In this document: piece by piece, positions 9,447-55,209 of the stretch
How positions within the stretch are numbered: position 1 is the stretch's first letter
Layout of the letters: every line of letters begins with the position of its first letter
Source of the DNA: an uncultured Lachnospiraceae bacterium
GTDB lineage: Bacteria > Bacillota > Clostridia > Lachnospirales > Lachnospiraceae
DNA length: 55,359 bases
Assembly: GCA_902767335.1 (NCBI GenBank)
Contig: CACXHD010000126.1
Coordinates: 1 to 55,359 of the forward strand
Direction of reading: 5' to 3'
The notes under the pieces: generated by a model
What the model was told of the DNA's origin: nothing
Seen by the model: only the letters and a program-made list of their open reading frames with translations
Databases searched by the model: none
Made by a program: the position numbers and the translations under genes

Positions 9447-10457
9447 ATGTCTGAAATCGGAGTGCTGGGAGCCGGCACCTGGGGAATGGCTCTTGCCCGA
9501 ATGCTTTGCAACAGTGGTCATGGCGTGATGGTCTGGTCTGCTCTTGAGCGGGAGATCGACGAATATTCTTCCACGCGCAGACATCCGAACCTGCCCGGGA
9601 TGGTGATCCCGGACGGGGTCCGGTTTACGAAAGAGATCCGGGAGGCCGTGACGGATAAGGATATTGTTTTGTTCGCGGTTCCGTCCGTCTTTGTGCGCAG
9701 CACGGCAGCCAAAGCCGCTGCGTTTATCCCGGAAGGACAGATCATCGTGGACGTGGCCAAGGGCATTGAGCCGGATACGCTGTATACGCTCACGGAGGTC
9801 ATTGCGGACGAGCTGCGCAGAAACGGCAGGGGCGGAAACGTCCGTCTGGTCGCGCTGTCCGGACCGACCCATGCGGAGGAGGTTGCAAGGGACATGCCCA
9901 CGACGATCGTCTCCGCGGGAGAGGACATGCGGGCTGCCCGCTTTGTGCAGGATGTGTTTATGAATACCTGCATGCGGGTTTACACCAATCCGGACGTCAA
10001 GGGCGTAGAGCTCTGCGGAGCGCTTAAGAACATTATCGCGCTTGCCGCCGGGATGGCCCGGGGCCTCGGCTACGGGGACAACACCAAAGCGGCACTGATT
10101 ACCAGAGGGATGGCGGAGATTACCCGCCTCGGACTGGCGATGGGCTGCCAGGAGACGACCTTTTACGGACTGGCCGGCATCGGCGATCTGGTCGTGACCG
10201 CGACCAGCGTGCACAGCCGCAATAACCGGGCCGGCGAACTGATCGGACAGGGGATGAGCCCGGAGGAAGCCGTGAAAAAAGTTGGAATGGTCGTGGAAGG
10301 CATCAACGCCCTTCCGGCAGCCATGGAGATGGCAGATGCCTGCCTTGTCCAGATGCCGATTGTCAGCGGCGTGAACCGCATCATCCGGGAAGGCGCAGAT
10401 CCGAACAAGGTGGTACGGGAACTGATGGAGCGGGAGAAAAAACCGGAGAGGTATTGA
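9447..10457 (+). CDS. gpsA: NAD(P)H-dependent glycerol-3-phosphate dehydrogenase
   Basis: N-terminal GAGTWGMALA dinucleotide fold, GPTHAEEV, GALKNIIALAAG and NRAGELIGQG motifs. Length is 336 aa. Confidence 0.9.
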   Translation: MSEIGVLGAGTWGMALARMLCNSGHGVMVWSALEREIDEYSSTRRHPNLPGMVIPDGVRFTKEIREAVTDKDIVLFAVPSVFVRSTAAKAAAFIPEGQIIVDVAKGIEPDTLYTLTEVIADELRRNGRGGNVRLVALSGPTHAEEVARDMPTTIVSAGEDMRAARFVQDVFMNTCMRVYTNPDVKGVELCGALKNIIALAAGMARGLGYGDNTKAALITRGMAEITRLGLAMGCQETTFYGLAGIGDLVVTATSVHSRNNRAGELIGQGMSPEEAVKKVGMVVEGINALPAAMEMADACLVQMPIVSGVNRIIREGADPNKVVRELMEREKKPERY

Positions 10458-10463
10458 GCGTGT

Positions 10464-10558
10464 GAGACAGGGGACGGTTCTGGGGAGACAGGGGGAGACA
10501 GGGGACGGTTCTGGGGAGACAGGGGACGGTTCTGTGTCTCCGAACCGTCCCCTGTCTC
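10464..10558. repeat. array of 4 hairpin-family units (3 direct, 1 inverted) after gpsA
   Basis: GAGACAGGGGACGGTTCTG occurs at 10464, 10495 and 10515, with an inverted copy at 10541-10558. There is an orphan left arm GGAGACAG at 10484. The segments 10514-10531 and 10542-10559 form a perfect 18-bp stem. Confidence 0.9.
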
Positions 10559-10602
10559 CCCACCCTGTCTCCTCTCTGGCTCAATCTGACACACACTGCC
10601 TC

Positions 10603-13081: not shown

Positions 13082-13116
13082 CAGGCAAGACAGAGAATCG
13101 TCCCCTGTCTTGCCTG
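13082..13116 (-). repeat. hairpin-family unit (12-bp stem) in the hom leader
   Basis: CAGGCAAGACAG-agaatcgtccc-CTGTCTTGCCTG. The loop is the reverse complement of the family core with one change. It ends 20 nt before the hom ATG. Confidence 0.85.
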
Positions 13117-16432: not shown

Positions 16433-16459
16433 GGAGACAGGGGACGGTTCTGTGTCTCC
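16433..16459 (+). repeat. hairpin-family unit after GNAT gene
   Basis: GGAGACAGGGGACGGTTCTGTGTCTCC, starting 3 nt after the TGA stop. Confidence 0.85.
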
Positions 16460-25287: not shown

Positions 25288-25773
25288 ATGAAATGCAGAA
25301 TTACAACGGAAGGCTTCGGGGATATGATTTTTGAGCTGTATCCCCAATATGCACCCATCACGGTGAAGAATTTTGTCGATACGGTAAACAGCGGATTTTA
25401 CAATGGTCTTGCCTGGTGCCGGATCGTGGAGGGATACGTCATCCAAGGCGGTTCGCCGGACAATGACATCATGACGGACAGCGACTGGCATATCAAAGGA
25501 GAATTCGCGGAGAACGGAATTGAAAACCCGGTGCCGCACATTCGCGGCGCGATTTCCATGGCCAGAGACGATGCGCCGGATACCGCGGGAACACAGTTTT
25601 TCGTGGTGCACCAGGACGCCCATAAGCTGGACGGCAGATACGCGGCCTTCGGTCAGATGACGGAAGGGTTTGATGTGCTGGATGCCATCGCATCGCAGCC
25701 GACGTACGGGCCGGAGACCTGGAACAAGCCGGTAAAGATGCCGGTGATCCGGGAGATTGTAGTGGAGGAGTAG
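25288..25773 (+). CDS. peptidyl-prolyl cis-trans isomerase, cyclophilin type
   Basis: Motifs WCRIVEGYVIQGG, GAISMAR and GTQFFVV. The TAG stop overlaps the first base of a hairpin repeat. Confidence 0.9.
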   Translation: MKCRITTEGFGDMIFELYPQYAPITVKNFVDTVNSGFYNGLAWCRIVEGYVIQGGSPDNDIMTDSDWHIKGEFAENGIENPVPHIRGAISMARDDAPDTAGTQFFVVHQDAHKLDGRYAAFGQMTEGFDVLDAIASQPTYGPETWNKPVKMPVIREIVVEE

Positions 25774-25799
25774 GAGACAGGGGACGGTTCTCTGTCTCC
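25773..25799 (+). repeat. hairpin-family unit overlapping the cyclophilin stop codon
   Basis: GGAGACAGGGGACGGTTCTCTGTCTCC. Its first G is the last base of the TAG stop. Confidence 0.9.
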
Positions 25800-25826
25800 T
25801 CCCGGGGCGGCTTGCGGGAGACGGAA

Positions 25827-25851
25827 AAGACAGTGAATCGTCCCCTGTCTT
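25827..25851 (-). repeat. hairpin-family unit (inverted, AAGA/TCTT arms)
   Basis: AAGACAG-tgaatcgtccc-CTGTCTT. It forms an inverted pair with the 25773 copy. Confidence 0.8.
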
Positions 25852-25894
25852 CCCTGTCTCCCGTTCTGCGAAAATGAAAGGGAAGTGACTTCAA

Positions 25895-41081: not shown

Positions 41082-41261
41082 TACTGCCTCCTGCTTTGAA
41101 ATAATTGATTGTTTTTCTTGATTTTAATTGAATTGTCGGGGACAGTCATCATTTGATCTTGACATAAATCCGACTTATTTTGCGGTACCTGTGGCACGTT
41201 TCTTTCTTGCTGTTTTGCCTTCGCCGCCGTGAATCCATTTTCTTGAAAAACACATCTGACT

Positions 41262-41557
41262 CTGTAAAAACAGGACTTACTTATGAGTTTCTGAAATCGC
41301 TGAAAGGAGGAATTGATATAACCATCTCCAGCACACAGGCAGTCTCAAGCGGCTGGAGCAAAGGAGAAGCGGTCAATGATTCCGATGCTTCTCATGTTCC
41401 GGTGCATCGGAAGGTTCATTACCTCTCCTCCAATCCCAAAGTGGCAAAAGTCGGGAAAACGAGCGGAAAAGTAACTGCTGTCTCGGCAGGCACCTGCAAA
41501 ATCTACTGCTTCACGCAAAACGGTCTCCATACAACGGTCTCCGTGAAAGTGCGGTAA
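41262..41557 (+). pseudogene. truncated paralog fragment of the surface-protein gene at 43376-44984 (beta-strand segment plus Big_2 domain, FN3 part deleted)
   Basis: 41262-41345 matches 44268-44345 at about 85 percent identity by eye. 41395-41557 matches 44822-44984 at nearly 90 percent. There is no N-terminal part and no credible start. Confidence 0.5.
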
Positions 41558-41584
41558 ACGGATAGAGCCGGTATCCTGATCAGA

Positions 41585-41623
41585 GTGAGTCATGATGAGT
41601 AGGGGACGTATTTTCTGACTCAC
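41585..41623 (+). repeat. hairpin-family unit, GTGAGT subfamily, left arm split by a 9-nt insertion
   Basis: GTGAGTCA[tgatgagta]GGGGACGTATTTTCTGACTCAC. Confidence 0.7.
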
Positions 41624-41710
41624 CAGCGCAGGCGAGCGAAGAGAGGGCACCCGGGGAGCCGGGAGCGTCGGGAGAAGCGGGAGCGCCCGGGGAATCTGGA
41701 GATAAGGCAA

Positions 41711-41740
41711 GTGAGTCAGGGGACGTATCTTCTGACCCAC
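41711..41740 (+). repeat. hairpin-family unit, GTGAGT subfamily
   Basis: GTGAGTCAGGGGACGTATCTTCTGACCCAC. It begins the second 116-bp tandem unit. Confidence 0.85.
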
Positions 41741-41784
41741 CAGCGCAGACGAGCGAAGAGAGGGCACCCGGGGAGCCGGGAACG

Positions 41785-42198
41785 TTGGGAGAAGCGGGAA
41801 CGCCAGGAGAGTCTGGAGATACGGGAGAAGCGGGACTGCCAGGGAAACCTGAGGAGTCGGAAAAATCGAACGAACCAGGAGAAACACTAGAAAGTGCAGC
41901 CGGATCCGCAGACGGTATCGTATCCGGTCAGGCGTGGGCAGATCTGTCGGCAGCGCAGAAAACGGAAGCAGGTGAAGCAGCGGCGCAGGAAAATGTCGGT
42001 CCACAGCCGGCGGGAGCTTTGGAAAAACCGATGGCTGTAGAAAACGTTGATATAGATACCGGCGATACTGAAACCGGCGATACAGAGATCGGTGATACAG
42101 ATACAAATGACAGCAAAAGCAGATGGATTATGACGATTCTGAGTTTTCTTGTTCTGGGCGTTGGCCTGTTCGTTGCAAAAAAGTATAAACGGCGGTAA
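41785..42198 (+). CDS. Gly/Glu/Pro-rich (collagen-like) ORF ending in a hydrophobic anchor plus KKYKRR; possibly a gene relic
   Basis: The frame is open from 41599, but the only start codon is TTG 41785. The C-terminus is WIMTILSFLVLGVGLFVAKKYKRR. The upstream part is built from a hairpin-containing tandem repeat. Confidence 0.3.
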   Translation: MGEAGTPGESGDTGEAGLPGKPEESEKSNEPGETLESAAGSADGIVSGQAWADLSAAQKTEAGEAAAQENVGPQPAGALEKPMAVENVDIDTGDTETGDTEIGDTDTNDSKSRWIMTILSFLVLGVGLFVAKKYKRR

Positions 42199-42246
42199 GA
42201 TGGAGCCATGAGACACAGAAAGGCAGAGCGAGCCAAGGAAGCCGGG

Positions 42247-42276
42247 GTGAGTCAGGGGACGTATCTTCTGACTCAC
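42247..42276 (+). repeat. hairpin-family unit, GTGAGT subfamily, before SGNH gene
   Basis: GTGAGTCAGGGGACGTATCTTCTGACTCAC, a perfect 9-bp stem. Confidence 0.9.
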
Positions 42277-42305
42277 CCCAACTCACCAGACGGGAAAGGA
42301 TTGAG

Positions 42306-43010
42306 ATGACAATGAGAGAACAGGAAATGCAGGACCTGATCCGGCAGGTTGTCGAAGGGATGTTTGGTCAGGAAAAGGACGGAAAAGTACGCAGATTTCA
42401 GGAACTGAATCCGTATGCGCAAAAGGGACAGATCGTGTTCGCAGGATCCAGTCTGATGGAACATTTCCCGATTTATGAGATGCTGTTGAACCGGAAGCTT
42501 CCGTATATCATTTATAACCGAGGGATTGGCGGATATACAACCGGGGAGCTGCTGGATCATCTGGAGACTTGTGTTCTGGAACTGGAACCGGGTGCAGTGT
42601 TTCTGAATATCGGGACGAACGACATGAACGGAAACGACTATGTGCTGTCGGAATTCCTGGAACGGTACGAGAAGATTGTCATGACAATCCGAAAGAGGCT
42701 GCCGGAAGCAAAGCTGTTTCTGCTTGCCTTTTATCCCGTCAATCAGGATGCGGCGCCGGATCCGAATGCAAGAGAGGCATTCCGGTATCGCACGAATGAG
42801 AGGATTCAGGAGGCAAATCAGGAGATTCGGAAACTGGCGGACAGATATCAGGCTTCGTATTTGGATTTGAATGCCGGTCTGACAGATGAAGACGGGAATC
42901 TGAAGAGAGAGCTTACGATTGACGGCGTTCATATGCATATGGAAGGATATCGGATTGTGATGGAGAATCTTGCCCCCGTACTGAAATCGTTGGCAGAAGC
43001 ACTCAAATAA
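42306..43010 (+). CDS. SGNH/GDSL family esterase-lipase
   Basis: Block I FAGSSL, block II GIGGYT, block III GTNDMN and block V DGVHM. Confidence 0.8.
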   Translation: MTMREQEMQDLIRQVVEGMFGQEKDGKVRRFQELNPYAQKGQIVFAGSSLMEHFPIYEMLLNRKLPYIIYNRGIGGYTTGELLDHLETCVLELEPGAVFLNIGTNDMNGNDYVLSEFLERYEKIVMTIRKRLPEAKLFLLAFYPVNQDAAPDPNAREAFRYRTNERIQEANQEIRKLADRYQASYLDLNAGLTDEDGNLKRELTIDGVHMHMEGYRIVMENLAPVLKSLAEALK

Positions 43011-43147
43011 CCATACGCTTCAACATCTGTTCCCCTGCAGAATTGAAGCCGGGAAATATGTTACTTCAGACAGGAGCATTGACCATTCTTTGGGCAATGC
43101 TCCTTTTGTGTGCGCCATCAACGTGAAAGCACAGCCGGAGATGAGAA

Positions 43148-43240
43148 GAAAAGCAGAAGCGCACAAAAAGCAGAAGCGCACAAAAGCAGAAGCGCACAAA
43201 AGCAGAAGCGCAGAGACGCAGAAACGAAGAAGCGCAGAAG
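43148..43240. repeat. 16-17-bp tandem repeat (AGCAGAAGCGCACAAA) about 4 copies plus a degenerate tail
   Basis: Units start at 43152, 43169, 43185 and 43201, followed by gcgcagagacgcagaaacgaagaagcgcagaag. The repeat is intergenic, between the SGNH gene and the surface-protein pseudogene. Confidence 0.85.
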
Positions 43241-43375
43241 AATGTTTCATGACCGGAAGCAGTCGAAGAGGACAGAACCGCCTCTTTTTTGACAGATTTA
43301 CTGAAAAAACGTTGGAATACTATAGAAAATATGGTTAAATACAGATAGAATAATTCATTCTGGGAGGAGTTGATC

Positions 43376-44984
43376 ATGAAGAAAAGCAAGATTTATGTTT
43401 CTGTATTTCAAAAAATCTTGGCAGTATTGACAATTTTTGCGCTGCTTCTTGTCTGGAACAGGTAGGCTGCATATGCGGCGGATCCGCCCGCAGCCGAGCC
43501 GGCGGAAACGCTGGATCATTATGTTGTGGACGACGTAACGTATTTTAATGTGTTTTCAGAAAACTTTTCCAAACACCCGGAGGAGTATCTGAAGGAACTG
43601 ATGACCACCAAAAGTACGTTCCTGAGCGGGAAAAGCATGGCGGATCTGTGGATGTCGACAGCGGTCGCGCTTTCTCATCACAGTGTGTCAAAAAAGGATA
43701 CGACAATGAATGGCACTGGATAAACGCTACGAATCTGATGAATGAAGTGGCACAGTCCGAAGACGGAGCCACCGTAACGAGAAATCTATATGCAAAAGAC
43801 AGTCCTTCGGAATTCAAGAACTGGCCATATCAGACCAGAAAACACAGCATGCTGTACATGCCCGGCCTGAAAAGAGCAGAGGAGTGGGTCTTCGAAAAAT
43901 TAGCCGAAGACGGCCAAATGAATACTTCAAAAGTTTTTGAGAACAGTGAAGAACAGGGGCCCGTACTGGTGATGGTTGACCTTCTGCATAAAGGCGGCTT
44001 TCTTCCCTATGGTTACGCCGGCGGTTTTAACCGGATCGTGGCAGTCTATCTGTATGACTTCACGGCTGTCCCGATTCTTCCGTCGGATACGGGAAATAAC
44101 TATGTCACAGAGATCATAACGGATACGGAATCGGCTCCGAAGACGGTTGCATCCAATGCAAGAAACATGACGGGGCTGTCTACTTCTGCGTCTCAGACGG
44201 TATCCACATCCCATTCTGTGAATGTCACGAGTAACATCAACGGTTCGAGGAACTATTCTTTCTCTGTATCTGTAAAAACGGGTATTTCTTATGACTTTCT
44301 GAAAACGCTGAAAGGCGGAATTGATATAACCATTTCCAGCTCACAGGCAGCGGCAGCACCGGCGAAAGCAGCAGTAAAGCGGATACATCCCGGAGTGCAG
44401 AAAACGTCCTGTTTTATGTGTATCCGTCCAAAATCACAGGCAGTGCCGTCACATTGAAGTGGAACAGCGTAAAAGGCGCGGATCAGTATGTGATTTACGG
44501 GGCAAAATGCGGATCGAAAATGAAGCAGATCGGTGTGGTTGACAGCCGGACTTTGAGCCAGAAAATTACCGGCATCAAGGGTGACGATCTGAAGAAGGAT
44601 ACCTTCTATAAGTTTTATGTGGCAGCGCTCGCCAATGGCAGTAATCACAAATCCGTATTGCTTGCGGCTACCTCCACGATACACGAGATTCTGAAAGGGT
44701 CCGGGAAATATGCGAATTATACCAGCATACGACTGCATTCTGCAAAAAGCATCAAACTGAAAAAAGGCAAAAAAACCACCATTAAGGCGGAACAGGTAAC
44801 ATCCTCCGGAGCAGGTACTCACGCACCGGTGCATCGGAAGGTTCATTACCTTTCTTCCAATCCCAAAGTGGCAAAAGTCGGGAAAACGAGTGGAAAAGTT
44901 ACCGCCGTCTCAGCAGGCACCTGTAAGATATACTGCTTCACGCAAAACGGTCGCTACAAAACGGTATCCGTGAAAGTGAGGTAA
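43376..44984 (+). pseudogene. secreted surface/toxin-like protein (signal peptide, Ser/Thr-rich beta-strand region, FN3-like and Big_2 domains) with three lesions
   Basis: GGGAGGAG RBS and signal peptide MKKSKIYVSVFQKILAVLTIFALLLV. There is an in-frame TAG at 43463-43465. A frame change occurs at the A6 run 43690-43695, and another near 44345-44355. Track ORFs 43526, 43648 and 44418 join into one protein. Confidence 0.6.
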
Positions 44985-45014
44985 GTGAGTCAGGGGGACG
45001 TTGCTCCTGACTCA
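44985..45014 (+). repeat. hairpin-family unit, GTGAGT subfamily, directly after Big_2 gene stop
   Basis: GTGAGTCAGGGGGACGTTGCTCCTGACTCA. It starts 1 nt after the TAA. Confidence 0.8.
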
Positions 45015-45140
45015 TTTTGTGCAGGTTTTAACCTTTTTATGCGGTATGACTACAGAACCCGGGATGTGACAGTCTCTTTTTGTTCCGGTTTTAGGCATTT
45101 TTATGCGGAATGGCGACAGAAACCGGAATGAACGAGCGCT
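45014..45140 (+). repeat. degenerate ~62-bp tandem duplication
   Basis: ttttgtgcaggttttaacctttttatgcggtatgactacagaacccgggatg aligns with tttgttccggttttaggcatttttatgcggaatggcgacagaaaccggaatg at about three quarters identity by eye. Confidence 0.7.
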
Positions 45141-45141
45141 G

Positions 45142-45225
45142 CAGACTTGGAATGAGTCAGAAGACAGGACCCCTGAATATCCAGACTTGTGGTGAGTGAG
45201 TCAGAAGATACGATCCCTGACGCAC
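45142..45225 (-). repeat. two tandem inverted, degenerate hairpin-family units
   Basis: cagacttggaatGAGTCAGAAGACAGGACCCCTGA and cagacttgtggtgagtGAGTCAGAAGATACGATCCCTGA. Their reverse complements carry CAGGGGTCC.. and CAGGGATCGTATCTTCTGACTCAC. Confidence 0.65.
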
Positions 45226-45260
45226 CCTGATTCATTCGGATTTTAGAAAGGAAAAATCGT

Positions 45261-49957: not shown

Positions 49958-49984
49958 GGAGACAGAGAACCGTCCCCTGTCTCC
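49958..49984 (-). repeat. hairpin-family unit 18 nt upstream of the GH42 start
   Basis: GGAGACAGAGAACCGTCCCCTGTCTCC is the exact reverse complement of the 25773 copy. Confidence 0.9.
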
Positions 49985-53702: not shown

Positions 53703-53707
53703 GAAGG

Positions 53708-53753
53708 CAATCAGGGGACGGTTCTCTGCAATCAGGGGACGGTTCCCTGATTG
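53708..53753 (+). repeat. two tandem hairpin-family units, CAAT subfamily, after GH13 gene
   Basis: CAATCAGGGGACGGTTCTCTG followed by CAATCAGGGGACGGTTCCCTGATTG. Confidence 0.9.
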
Positions 53754-54963: not shown

Positions 54964-55007
54964 TCAATCAGGTCAATCAGTCAATCAGGGGACGGTTCTC
55001 TGATTGA
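54964..55007 (+). repeat. hairpin-family unit, CAAT subfamily, with triplicated left arm
   Basis: TCAATCAG occurs three times (54964, 54973, 54981), then GGGACGGTTCT-CTGATTGA. It lies 83 bp upstream of the Y1 transposase relic. Confidence 0.9.
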
Positions 55008-55089
55008 AAAATTGTTCTGGTTGATTGAGACACAACACATATTGACTTTAAAAATCCCTAATGCTATACTTGCCATGAGGTGATGAACT

Positions 55090-55209
55090 ATGCCAAGGGC
55101 TGCAAGAATTCATTCTGACAGTGGGATATACCATGTGATGCTTCGAGGAATCAATCAGCAGCAGATATTTGAGGATAAGGAAGATAATATCTATAAGGAT
55201 CAATAAAGC
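55090..55209 (+). pseudogene. 39-codon N-terminal relic of an IS200/IS605-RAYT-type Y1 transposase
   Basis: MPRAARIHSDSGIYHVMLRGINQQQIFEDKEDNIYKDQ-stop matches the characteristic N-terminus of COG1943/Y1_Tnp proteins (PRxxR..GIYHVMxRGN..IFxDxED). The catalytic HUH/Tyr part is missing. The ORF is below the track length cutoff. Confidence 0.6.

Follow-up and report, generated by a model that had tools for sequence, protein, structure and literature searches.

Conserved-apex hairpin repeats of gut and rumen Clostridia and their probable association with a REP-associated Y1 transposase

A short hairpin with an invariant apex recurred between the genes of a 55,359-nt stretch of Lachnospiraceae DNA (the window), and the same hairpin bracketed a transposase gene in other genomes. 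The repeat is a real and abundant family of short hairpins of gut and rumen Clostridia. Its copies are very probably REP-like non-autonomous DNA belonging to a RAYT/TIRYT-type Y1 (HUH) transposase that is common in Clostridia.

The hairpin family in the window

An earlier note on this DNA had listed a recurring hairpin at a series of positions. We re-read every position and found the content as described, including the degenerate state of the two units at 45154 and 45192 (Table 1). All copies in the window lay between ORFs, at a density of about one copy per 3-5 kb, in DNA of about 54% GC. The exact sequence GGGGACGGTTC occurred 10 times in the 55-kb window, against 0.02 expected from dinucleotide-preserving shuffles. 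A covariance model (R1), built from 38 copies from outside and within the window, recovered 12 distinct significant hairpins in the window.

Table 1. Positions of hairpin copies, partial units and the transposase remnant in the window
Feature	Position	Strand	Evidence or context
Array after gpsA (stop codon ends at 10457)	10464..10572	+	Direct reading and covariance model
gpsA array, arm-less units	10464-10484, 10494-10514
gpsA array, orphan left arm	10484-10491
gpsA array, complete hairpin	10515-10541
gpsA array, inverted partial unit	10542-10559	-
gpsA array, orphan right arm	10565-10572
Complete hairpin, 12-bp stem CAGGCAAGACAG/CTGTCTTGCCTG, core GGGGACGATTC	13082..13116	-	44.7 bits; fold z -7.7
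Complete hairpin GGAGACA / GGGGACGGTTCTG / TGTCTCC	16433..16459	+	2 nt past GNAT stop codon
Complete hairpin overlapping cyclophilin TAG	25772..25800	+	Forward half of inverted doublet
Complete hairpin, AAGACAG arms, core GGGGACGATTC	25827..25851	-	Reversed half of doublet
Degenerate sub-family 2 copy, GTGAGT arms, core GGGGACGTAT	41585..41623	+	13 bits, E 0.5
Sub-family 2 hairpin GTGAGTCAG / GGGACGTATCTT / CTGACCCAC	41711..41740	+	One stem mismatch
Sub-family 2 hairpin, 12-bp stem GGGGTGAGTCAG/CTGACTCACCCC	42244..42279	+	-14.4 kcal/mol, z -6.9
Sub-family 2 hairpin, core GGGGGACGTTGC	44985..45014	+	Directly 3' of Big_2 ORF stop codon
Two degenerate reversed sub-family 2 units	45152-45176, 45191-45226	-	Direct reading; covariance model non-significant
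Complete hairpin GGAGACAG / GGGACGGTTCT / CTGTCTCC	49958..49984	-	50.9 bits, top score in window
Arm-less unit (53707-53727), then complete CAATCAG-arm hairpin (53729-53753)	53707..53753	+
TCAATCAG left arm three times (54964, 54973, 54981), then complete hairpin (54981-55007)	54964..55007	+
Promoter-like TTGACT, 17 nt, TG-TATACT ahead of remnant	55042..55070	+
Truncated RAYT-type Y1 transposase gene MPRAARIHSDSGIYHVMLRGINQQQIFEDKED, then 6 unrelated codons and stop	55090..55206	+	tblastn
Covariance-model starts	10511, 13082, 16429, 25769, 25822, 41708, 42244, 44982, 49954, 53724, 54977 and inverted unit of array
Tandem units without right arm	10464, 10494, 53707
Degenerate copies below covariance-model significance	41585, 45154, 45192		E 0.5 to 1 or worse

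The array after gpsA formed, as a whole, a long imperfect palindrome. The DNA fold of 10511-10563 had an energy of -27.4 kcal/mol (z -9.6), and the number of units varied among assemblies of one species. The hairpin at 13082 was located 20 nt ahead of the hom ATG (13137), with a stutter of its left arm, CAAGACAGG, just outside the element. At the 16433 site, a 98%-identical strain carried an additional GGAGACAG, and its contig terminated within the element. The element at 25772 was identical across nine assemblies, three of which broke at it. Its partner at 25827 was 43 nt before the MatE gene, and the outer arms GGGAGAC/GTCTCCC lengthened this hairpin. The hairpin at 49958 was found 18 nt before the GH42 start codon, and the pair at 53707 began 4 nt past the GH13 stop codon.

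The members of sub-family 2 lay together in the region from 41585 to 45226. The copy at 41585 had an insertion within its left arm, and the hairpin at 42244 was 26 nt ahead of the SGNH/GDSL gene. The Big_2 ORFs in 41180-42280 and 44418-45015 both ended in ...SVKVR*, with a GTGAGT-arm copy immediately behind each. A direct repeat of about 117 nt was common to 41585-41700 and 41711-41790, and the stretch 41785-42198 encoded a C-terminal membrane anchor. The two regions 41180-42280 and 44418-45015 look like a duplicated, fragmented surface-protein gene that carried the sub-family 2 copies along. The grouping of GTGAGT-arm copies appears to stem in part from a duplicated gene end rather than from separate insertions.

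The claim that the arms vary yet remain complementary was verified on a larger set. In 94 distinct copies, 88.8% of the arm cells were paired, compared with 71% in shuffled copies and 31-55% when the partner column was slid. Double-sided changes occurred at six of the nine arm pairs. Arm complementarity no better than in shuffled controls had been named beforehand as a possible refutation, and the copies paired better than the shuffles. A scan of 185,579 species genomes with the pattern CAGGGGACGNNTCN{1,2}CTG matched at least 120 stretches. Among the matches listed, 31 of the 51 exact CAGGGGACGGTTCTCTG sites had three or more further complementary arm pairs (chance 1.6%). Nearly all of the other 93 loose-pattern matches listed had 0 or 1 arm pair, and they came mostly from high-GC phyla. 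These non-copies in the same scan provided a built-in control for the arm pairing.

About 15 arm types were seen, including GGAGA, TAAGA, GGGA, GGAA, AACA, CTGA, CAAT, GTAA and GGAGT, each with its complement. A single genome tended to reuse one or a few of them. TAAGA was present at every site in a Blautia MAG, and GGAGA at six sites in the window. This reuse implied that the arms were inherited from source copies and not newly made at each site. Copying of the arms from the target at each insertion was also considered, and was ruled out because a small set of arm types recurred within one genome at many sites without any relation to each other.

The conserved part of the element was at its apex. 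The CAG/CTG core proposed in the earlier note held for most copies, but CAAG/CTTG and CACGG were present beside transposase genes, and the true invariant was GGGGACGGTTC. It was never altered in the copies beside transposase genes, which were found independently of the search pattern. The apex had also been described as an 11- to 12-nt loop. Its conservation in sequence stood, but its size did not: on DNA folding, the G-rich strand could pair further (G4.T14, G5-C13, G6.T12 and A7-T11), which would leave only 3-5 bases unpaired. In the second sub-family (GGGGA-CGTA-TCTTC, apex GGGGACGTATC) the pairing register was kept by swapping G-C and G.T pairs. The complementary strand would carry A.C mismatches in the apex, so the two strands are not equivalent. 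Outside the arms, the information content was below 0.5 bit per position, with no conserved tetranucleotide.

A Y1 transposase gene between inverted copies

ORFs near real copies from 43 sources were compared all against all, and the clusters were then searched against Pfam. One small ORF cluster corresponded to Y1_Tnp (IS200-like), with members at L045:3991-4743 and L046:5754-6500 (E 2e-14 and 6e-16). Besides the transposase, ORF clustering of these 43 sources revealed no recurrent neighbour family. In these two unrelated genomes the hairpin bracketed the gene, with a forward copy upstream and a reversed copy downstream. The same bracket was found around five further homologues that were 38-72% identical, and four of the four homologues examined at 63-72% identity (P0146, P0171, P0239 and P0205) were bracketed. 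In total, bracketed genes were present in seven independent genomes (L045, L046, L137, L143, L149, L153 and L169). This arrangement is the layout of a REP-associated transposase (RAYT).

The spacing of the bracket was regular in six genomes with intact genes (L045, L046 and those of the four homologues named above). The start of the upstream core preceded the ATG by 61-64 nt. TTGACA, a 17-nt spacer and TATAAT came directly after the right arm; the reversed copy was located 10-76 nt past the transposase stop codon. The position of the -35 box directly after the upstream hairpin suggests that expression of the transposase may be tied to the state of the hairpin.

The motif varied together with the protein. 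Around the gene of a relative from Acetoanaerobium noterae, 38% identical, GGGACGGTTC was contained within 25-nt perfect inverted repeats. More distant Y1 relatives from Sporomusa and Legionella had a different motif, GGGGTCAGGCC. This change of motif with more distant proteins indicated that the motif tracks the protein lineage. These distant relatives were about 36% identical and 287-295 aa long, and were encoded on plasmids of Sporomusa termitida (L170) and Legionella adelaidensis (L172). The Sporomusa gene had GGGGTCAGGCC on both sides, inverted, and the Legionella gene had it upstream only. One 114-kb contig (L143/L144) carried the transposase gene, an RHS-repeat gene and a 203-aa ORF in tandem with a period of 2753 nt. 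Hairpins bracketed each transposase copy on this contig, and a further N-terminal gene fragment followed.

The protein belongs to a large family: a search at E<1e-10 gave over 7,400 protein clusters. Almost all were about 250 aa long, and one was named RayT by its source. The HIH (HUH motif) and RYIHQNP (Tyr motif) segments were invariant in 16 members. Scores against NCBIfam NF047646 (REP-associated tyrosine transposase) were 79.1 bits (E 3e-22) and 75.4 bits, just under the curated cut-off of 80. In sequence searches of the PDB, 4ER8 (E. coli TnpA-REP) was the sole transposase match at E<=1. The AlphaFold model (pLDDT 85) had a helical C-terminal domain. Its top Foldseek match was 4er8_A (E 1e-7, TM 0.79), with the TnpA proteins of IS608, ISDra2 and IS200 at about 0.6. 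Four of seven C-terminal fragments gave sub-threshold HTH_23/HTH_28 matches (E 2.5e-4 to 0.2), and a fifth gave a single sub-threshold HTH_28 match (E 0.034); these matches lay in the last 65 residues of the protein. By its sequence matches and its predicted fold, the protein is nearer to TnpA-REP than to the TnpA proteins of IS608 or ISDra2.

The window itself contained a remnant of such a gene. The segment 55090-55185 corresponded to residues 1-32 of the L045 protein at 81% identity (tblastn), and the frame stopped at 55206. The remnant began 83 nt past the hairpin at 54981-55007, and this upstream copy was retained. The CAAT-arm hairpin at 54981 is the upstream partner of the transposase remnant. 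The cause of the truncation was located at or beyond the window end. A search with the remnant N-terminus for an intact gene of the window species returned short fragments only.

The earlier note had likened the repeats to REP/PATE elements mobilised by Y1 transposases. The bracket in seven genomes, the remnant in the window and a protein closer to TnpA-REP all supported the REP-type link. The PATE-like part of the comparison was not retained, because the flanking copies were inverted.

Spread of the repeat and alternative explanations

Copies occurred in recurring arrangements. Among inverted neighbours within 150 nt, 13 pairs were forward-then-reverse and one was reverse-then-forward. This polarity is that of the hairpin pair around the transposase gene, and the window provides two examples (25772/25827 and 10515/10542). 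The left arm was repeated just upstream in about a quarter of the elements, the repeat running 0-7 nt into the core or through GGTTC. These stutters varied between strains and were also present beside transposase genes. The earlier note had taken them as a hint of a replicative or nicking process at the hairpin base. The break points of partial units were scattered, and no cleavage site could be read from them. The G-rich strand was on the G>C strand at 9 loci and on the other at 4, which was suggestive and not significant. A rule that copies are forward after stop codons and reversed before start codons fitted the window; across loci it was a tendency of about 2:1, and it was dropped.

The core was kept across clostridial families, at the locus of the 38%-identical relative and in Atribacterota; a search of related genomes for the same loop had been proposed in the earlier note. 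In Atribacterota genomes of 27-35% GC, the same GC-rich 17-mer was placed on AT-rich arms. Bacillus sp. FJAT-27445 (L119) and Neobacillus notoginsengisoli (L006) carried a GTATC-core sub-family with GTGA(G/A)G arms. The core and arm pairing in these Bacillaceae was the same as in sub-family 2 of the window, and the stretches read contained no transposase gene. Among viral contigs, six stretches contained the 17-mer, and no close relative of the protein was found on plasmids. Phages and plasmids are thus not evident as carriers. Metagenome contigs of the window species repeatedly ended inside or just after hairpins (L121, L123, L124, L132, L159, L161 and L162), and many transposase-bearing contigs were just 0.9-2 kb long.

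Relatives with an 85%, 63% or 52% identical M20 peptidase had no copy in 3-14 kb each. The 85% relative was without both the GNAT gene and the element and gave no clean empty site. A metagenome scan for empty sites via the M20 peptidase returned only 52%-identical relatives without elements. No filled-versus-empty pair was found, and strains of the window species all shared the copies examined. Differences among strains in unit number and in stutters were the sole hints of movement.

We propose the following mechanism for a REP-like, transposase-linked repeat. Each unit is a single-strand hairpin with a lower stem of 5-12 bp, of any sequence as long as it is paired, and an invariant apex, GGGGACGGTTC, or GGGGACGTATC in the second sub-family. 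Extension of the stem via G.T pairs is open only to the G-rich strand, so this is probably the active strand. By analogy with TnpA-REP of E. coli (4ER8) and the TnpA proteins of IS608 and ISDra2, the enzyme would bind the hairpin while the DNA is transiently single-stranded and folded, read its apex, and then cut and rejoin the strand. Cutting and rejoining would give rise to further copies, to inverted doublets and to units that are tandem or partial. These would settle between genes, where they are tolerated, frequently just past a stop codon. Binding, cleavage, the active strand, present-day mobility and any effect on neighbouring genes are inferred.

The repeats could instead be the ends or miniature derivatives (PATEs) of a self-copying IS200/IS605 element. 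The Y1_Tnp assignment of the protein, the two or three occurrences of the gene on one contig (L143/L144) and the few copies on predicted viral contigs are in line with such an origin. However, the flanking hairpins were inverted, unlike the same-orientation left and right ends of these elements. The protein was about 250 aa long, with a putative C-terminal helix-turn-helix region (sub-threshold matches) and no adjoining tnpB, and its predicted fold was closer to TnpA-REP than to IS608 or ISDra2 TnpA. Single hairpins far outnumbered genes, the repeats on L143/L144 formed a 2753-nt tandem block with cargo genes and not a dispersed IS, and plasmids yielded no close relative. We therefore consider an IS200/IS605 origin unlikely.

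The hairpins might also be mainly RNA elements selected site by site, for example to stabilise 3' ends, terminate transcription or dock an RNA-binding protein, with the transposase link being secondary. Many copies started 0-12 nt past a stop codon, about two-thirds of those in the sense orientation, and in RNA the apex would gain stability, its G.T pairs becoming G.U. REPs elsewhere are known to stabilise mRNA (PMC3733652). Nevertheless, the copies occurred in both orientations relative to genes, some of them reversed and immediately ahead of start codons, and close relatives were without the element. The arm-less tandem units and left-arm stutters would be useless as RNA hairpins. The earlier view that the hairpins have no T-tract and are not classical terminators held for nine of the 12 hairpins, which failed a permissive terminator scan. 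The other three passed, with poor T-tails: two were on a strand without a gene end, and the third had just 4 T. No Rfam family matched at the gathering score, so that a known annotated ncRNA family, named beforehand as a refutation, was not found. At E<1, the only Rfam matches were eukaryotic miRNA-precursor models. These covered 10484-10572 and 25763-25862 of the window and were generic long-hairpin matches, not homology. A primary RNA role is accordingly quite improbable, and a secondary RNA role co-opted after stop codons is possible.

It is very improbable that the copies are operators bound by a transcription factor as double-stranded DNA, or palindromes that arose by chance: the arms were palindromic and several copies were just before start codons, but the conserved part was asymmetric and the symmetric part free to vary, the reverse of an operator pattern, the neighbouring genes had no common function, and chance was excluded by the core counts and the arm-pairing statistics.

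Relation to known systems

The reading of the repeats as REP-like DNA of a Y1 transposase can be set against several described systems. RAYTs were defined by flanking inverted REPs with a GT(A/G)G head (PMC2817692). The REP/BIME/REPIN and RAYT systems of Escherichia, Pseudomonas and Stenotrophomonas (PMC2817692, PMC3116915; 4ER8) likewise comprise short extragenic hairpins that are abundant and patchy among lineages. The clostridial repeat resembled them in its singletons, inverted doublets and clusters, in the Y1/HUH gene between two inverted copies, and in a predicted fold closest to 4ER8. In contrast to REPs, it had no GT(A/G)G (GTAG) head outside the stem and is not a classical REP. Its conserved sequence was at the hairpin apex with the lower stem left free, and its core was common to families and phyla rather than species-specific. 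The protein differed from RAYTs in a C-terminal extension of about 110 aa and in its clostridial hosts. The loop had not been recognised as a described REP family, and this still holds: no Rfam family matched, and no publication in the limited library searched contained the motif. Searches of published full text with the core in either orientation gave unrelated matches only, and the same limited library held nothing specific on RAYTs in Clostridia.

A closer counterpart was found in the TIRYTs (Di Nocera 2013, PMC3733652), which have inverted repeats at a fixed distance sharing GGGGWSAS, some of them forming moderate repeat families. TIRYTs correspond to TnpA-REP subclass 2.1, and no REP-like structures were reported near subclass 2.1 genes (Quentin 2018, PMC6006769). 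The C-terminal helix-turn-helix extension of this group is of the HTH_23, HTH_28 or Bac_DnaA_C-like type, and HTH_23 and HTH_28 are among the Pfam families named for this subclass (PMC6006769). Group 1 RAYTs, some of them clostridial, showed just a weak link to repeated 16-mers (Bertels 2017, PMC5581495). The main texts of PMC3733652 and PMC6006769 do not mention Firmicutes, and neither reports clostridial REP/TIR repeats. The clostridial family shared with TIRYTs the RAYT-like genes, a putative C-terminal helix-turn-helix region (here at sub-threshold scores) and inverted repeats at a fixed distance beginning with GGGG; some TIRYT repeats are also moderately abundant families in dimers or clusters. 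The GGGGTCAGGCC motif of the Sporomusa and Legionella relatives fits GGGGWSAS. However, the clostridial motif GGGGACGG(TTC) departed from GGGGWSAS at position 7, and each clostridial unit was itself a hairpin with co-varying arms. Judged by layout and protein sequence, the clostridial family appears to fit best with TIRYT/subclass 2.1. The motif, the co-varying hairpin units, the abundance and the host range set it apart from that group.

IS200/IS605 elements and PATEs have in common with the clostridial family a Y1 HUH enzyme acting on single-stranded DNA hairpins. In an IS200/IS605 element the hairpins at both ends share a strand, TnpA measures about 130-155 aa, and tnpB is often present, whereas here the ends were inverted, tnpB was absent, the protein was longer, and the gene was not the dispersed unit. 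The origins of rolling-circle plasmids and CRESS-DNA viruses have the same design, with a conserved apex on a stem constrained only to pair and an HUH enzyme. This likeness is an analogy only, and no replication role is indicated for the clostridial hairpin. Overall, the element falls into an already described class of small mobile DNA rather than being a new kind of element.

A further proposal, which we regard as possible but doubtful, is that the hairpin is the missing DNA substrate of TnpA-REP subclass 2.1/TIRYT. The enzyme would read, and perhaps nick, the 11-nt apex rather than a stem-side tetranucleotide, and the conserved apex would imply a constraint that goes further than enzyme and site evolving together. 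The protein has spread through clostridial families and reached Atribacterota, diverging to 38% identity, with no change in the apex; this would indicate such an extra constraint. If this were true, the apex would be read as it is by rolling-circle Rep proteins, and the constraint could stem from a host factor or from a domesticated function. A candidate role would be to supply the -35 box and autoregulate the gene via the overlapping hairpin.

REP/RAYT systems have been studied almost solely in Proteobacteria, and neither the 2013 nor the 2018 survey (PMC3733652, PMC6006769) found hairpin repeats next to genes of the helix-turn-helix-bearing subclass. The repeat partner of the clostridial transposase is now explicit. 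An invariant 11-mer on a free stem is a testable anatomy and offers a substrate for the DNA-recognition biochemistry of this subclass. The hairpins also fragment short-read metagenome assemblies and breed spurious short ORFs. For gut and rumen Clostridia, the family provides a marker for within-genome repeat dynamics.
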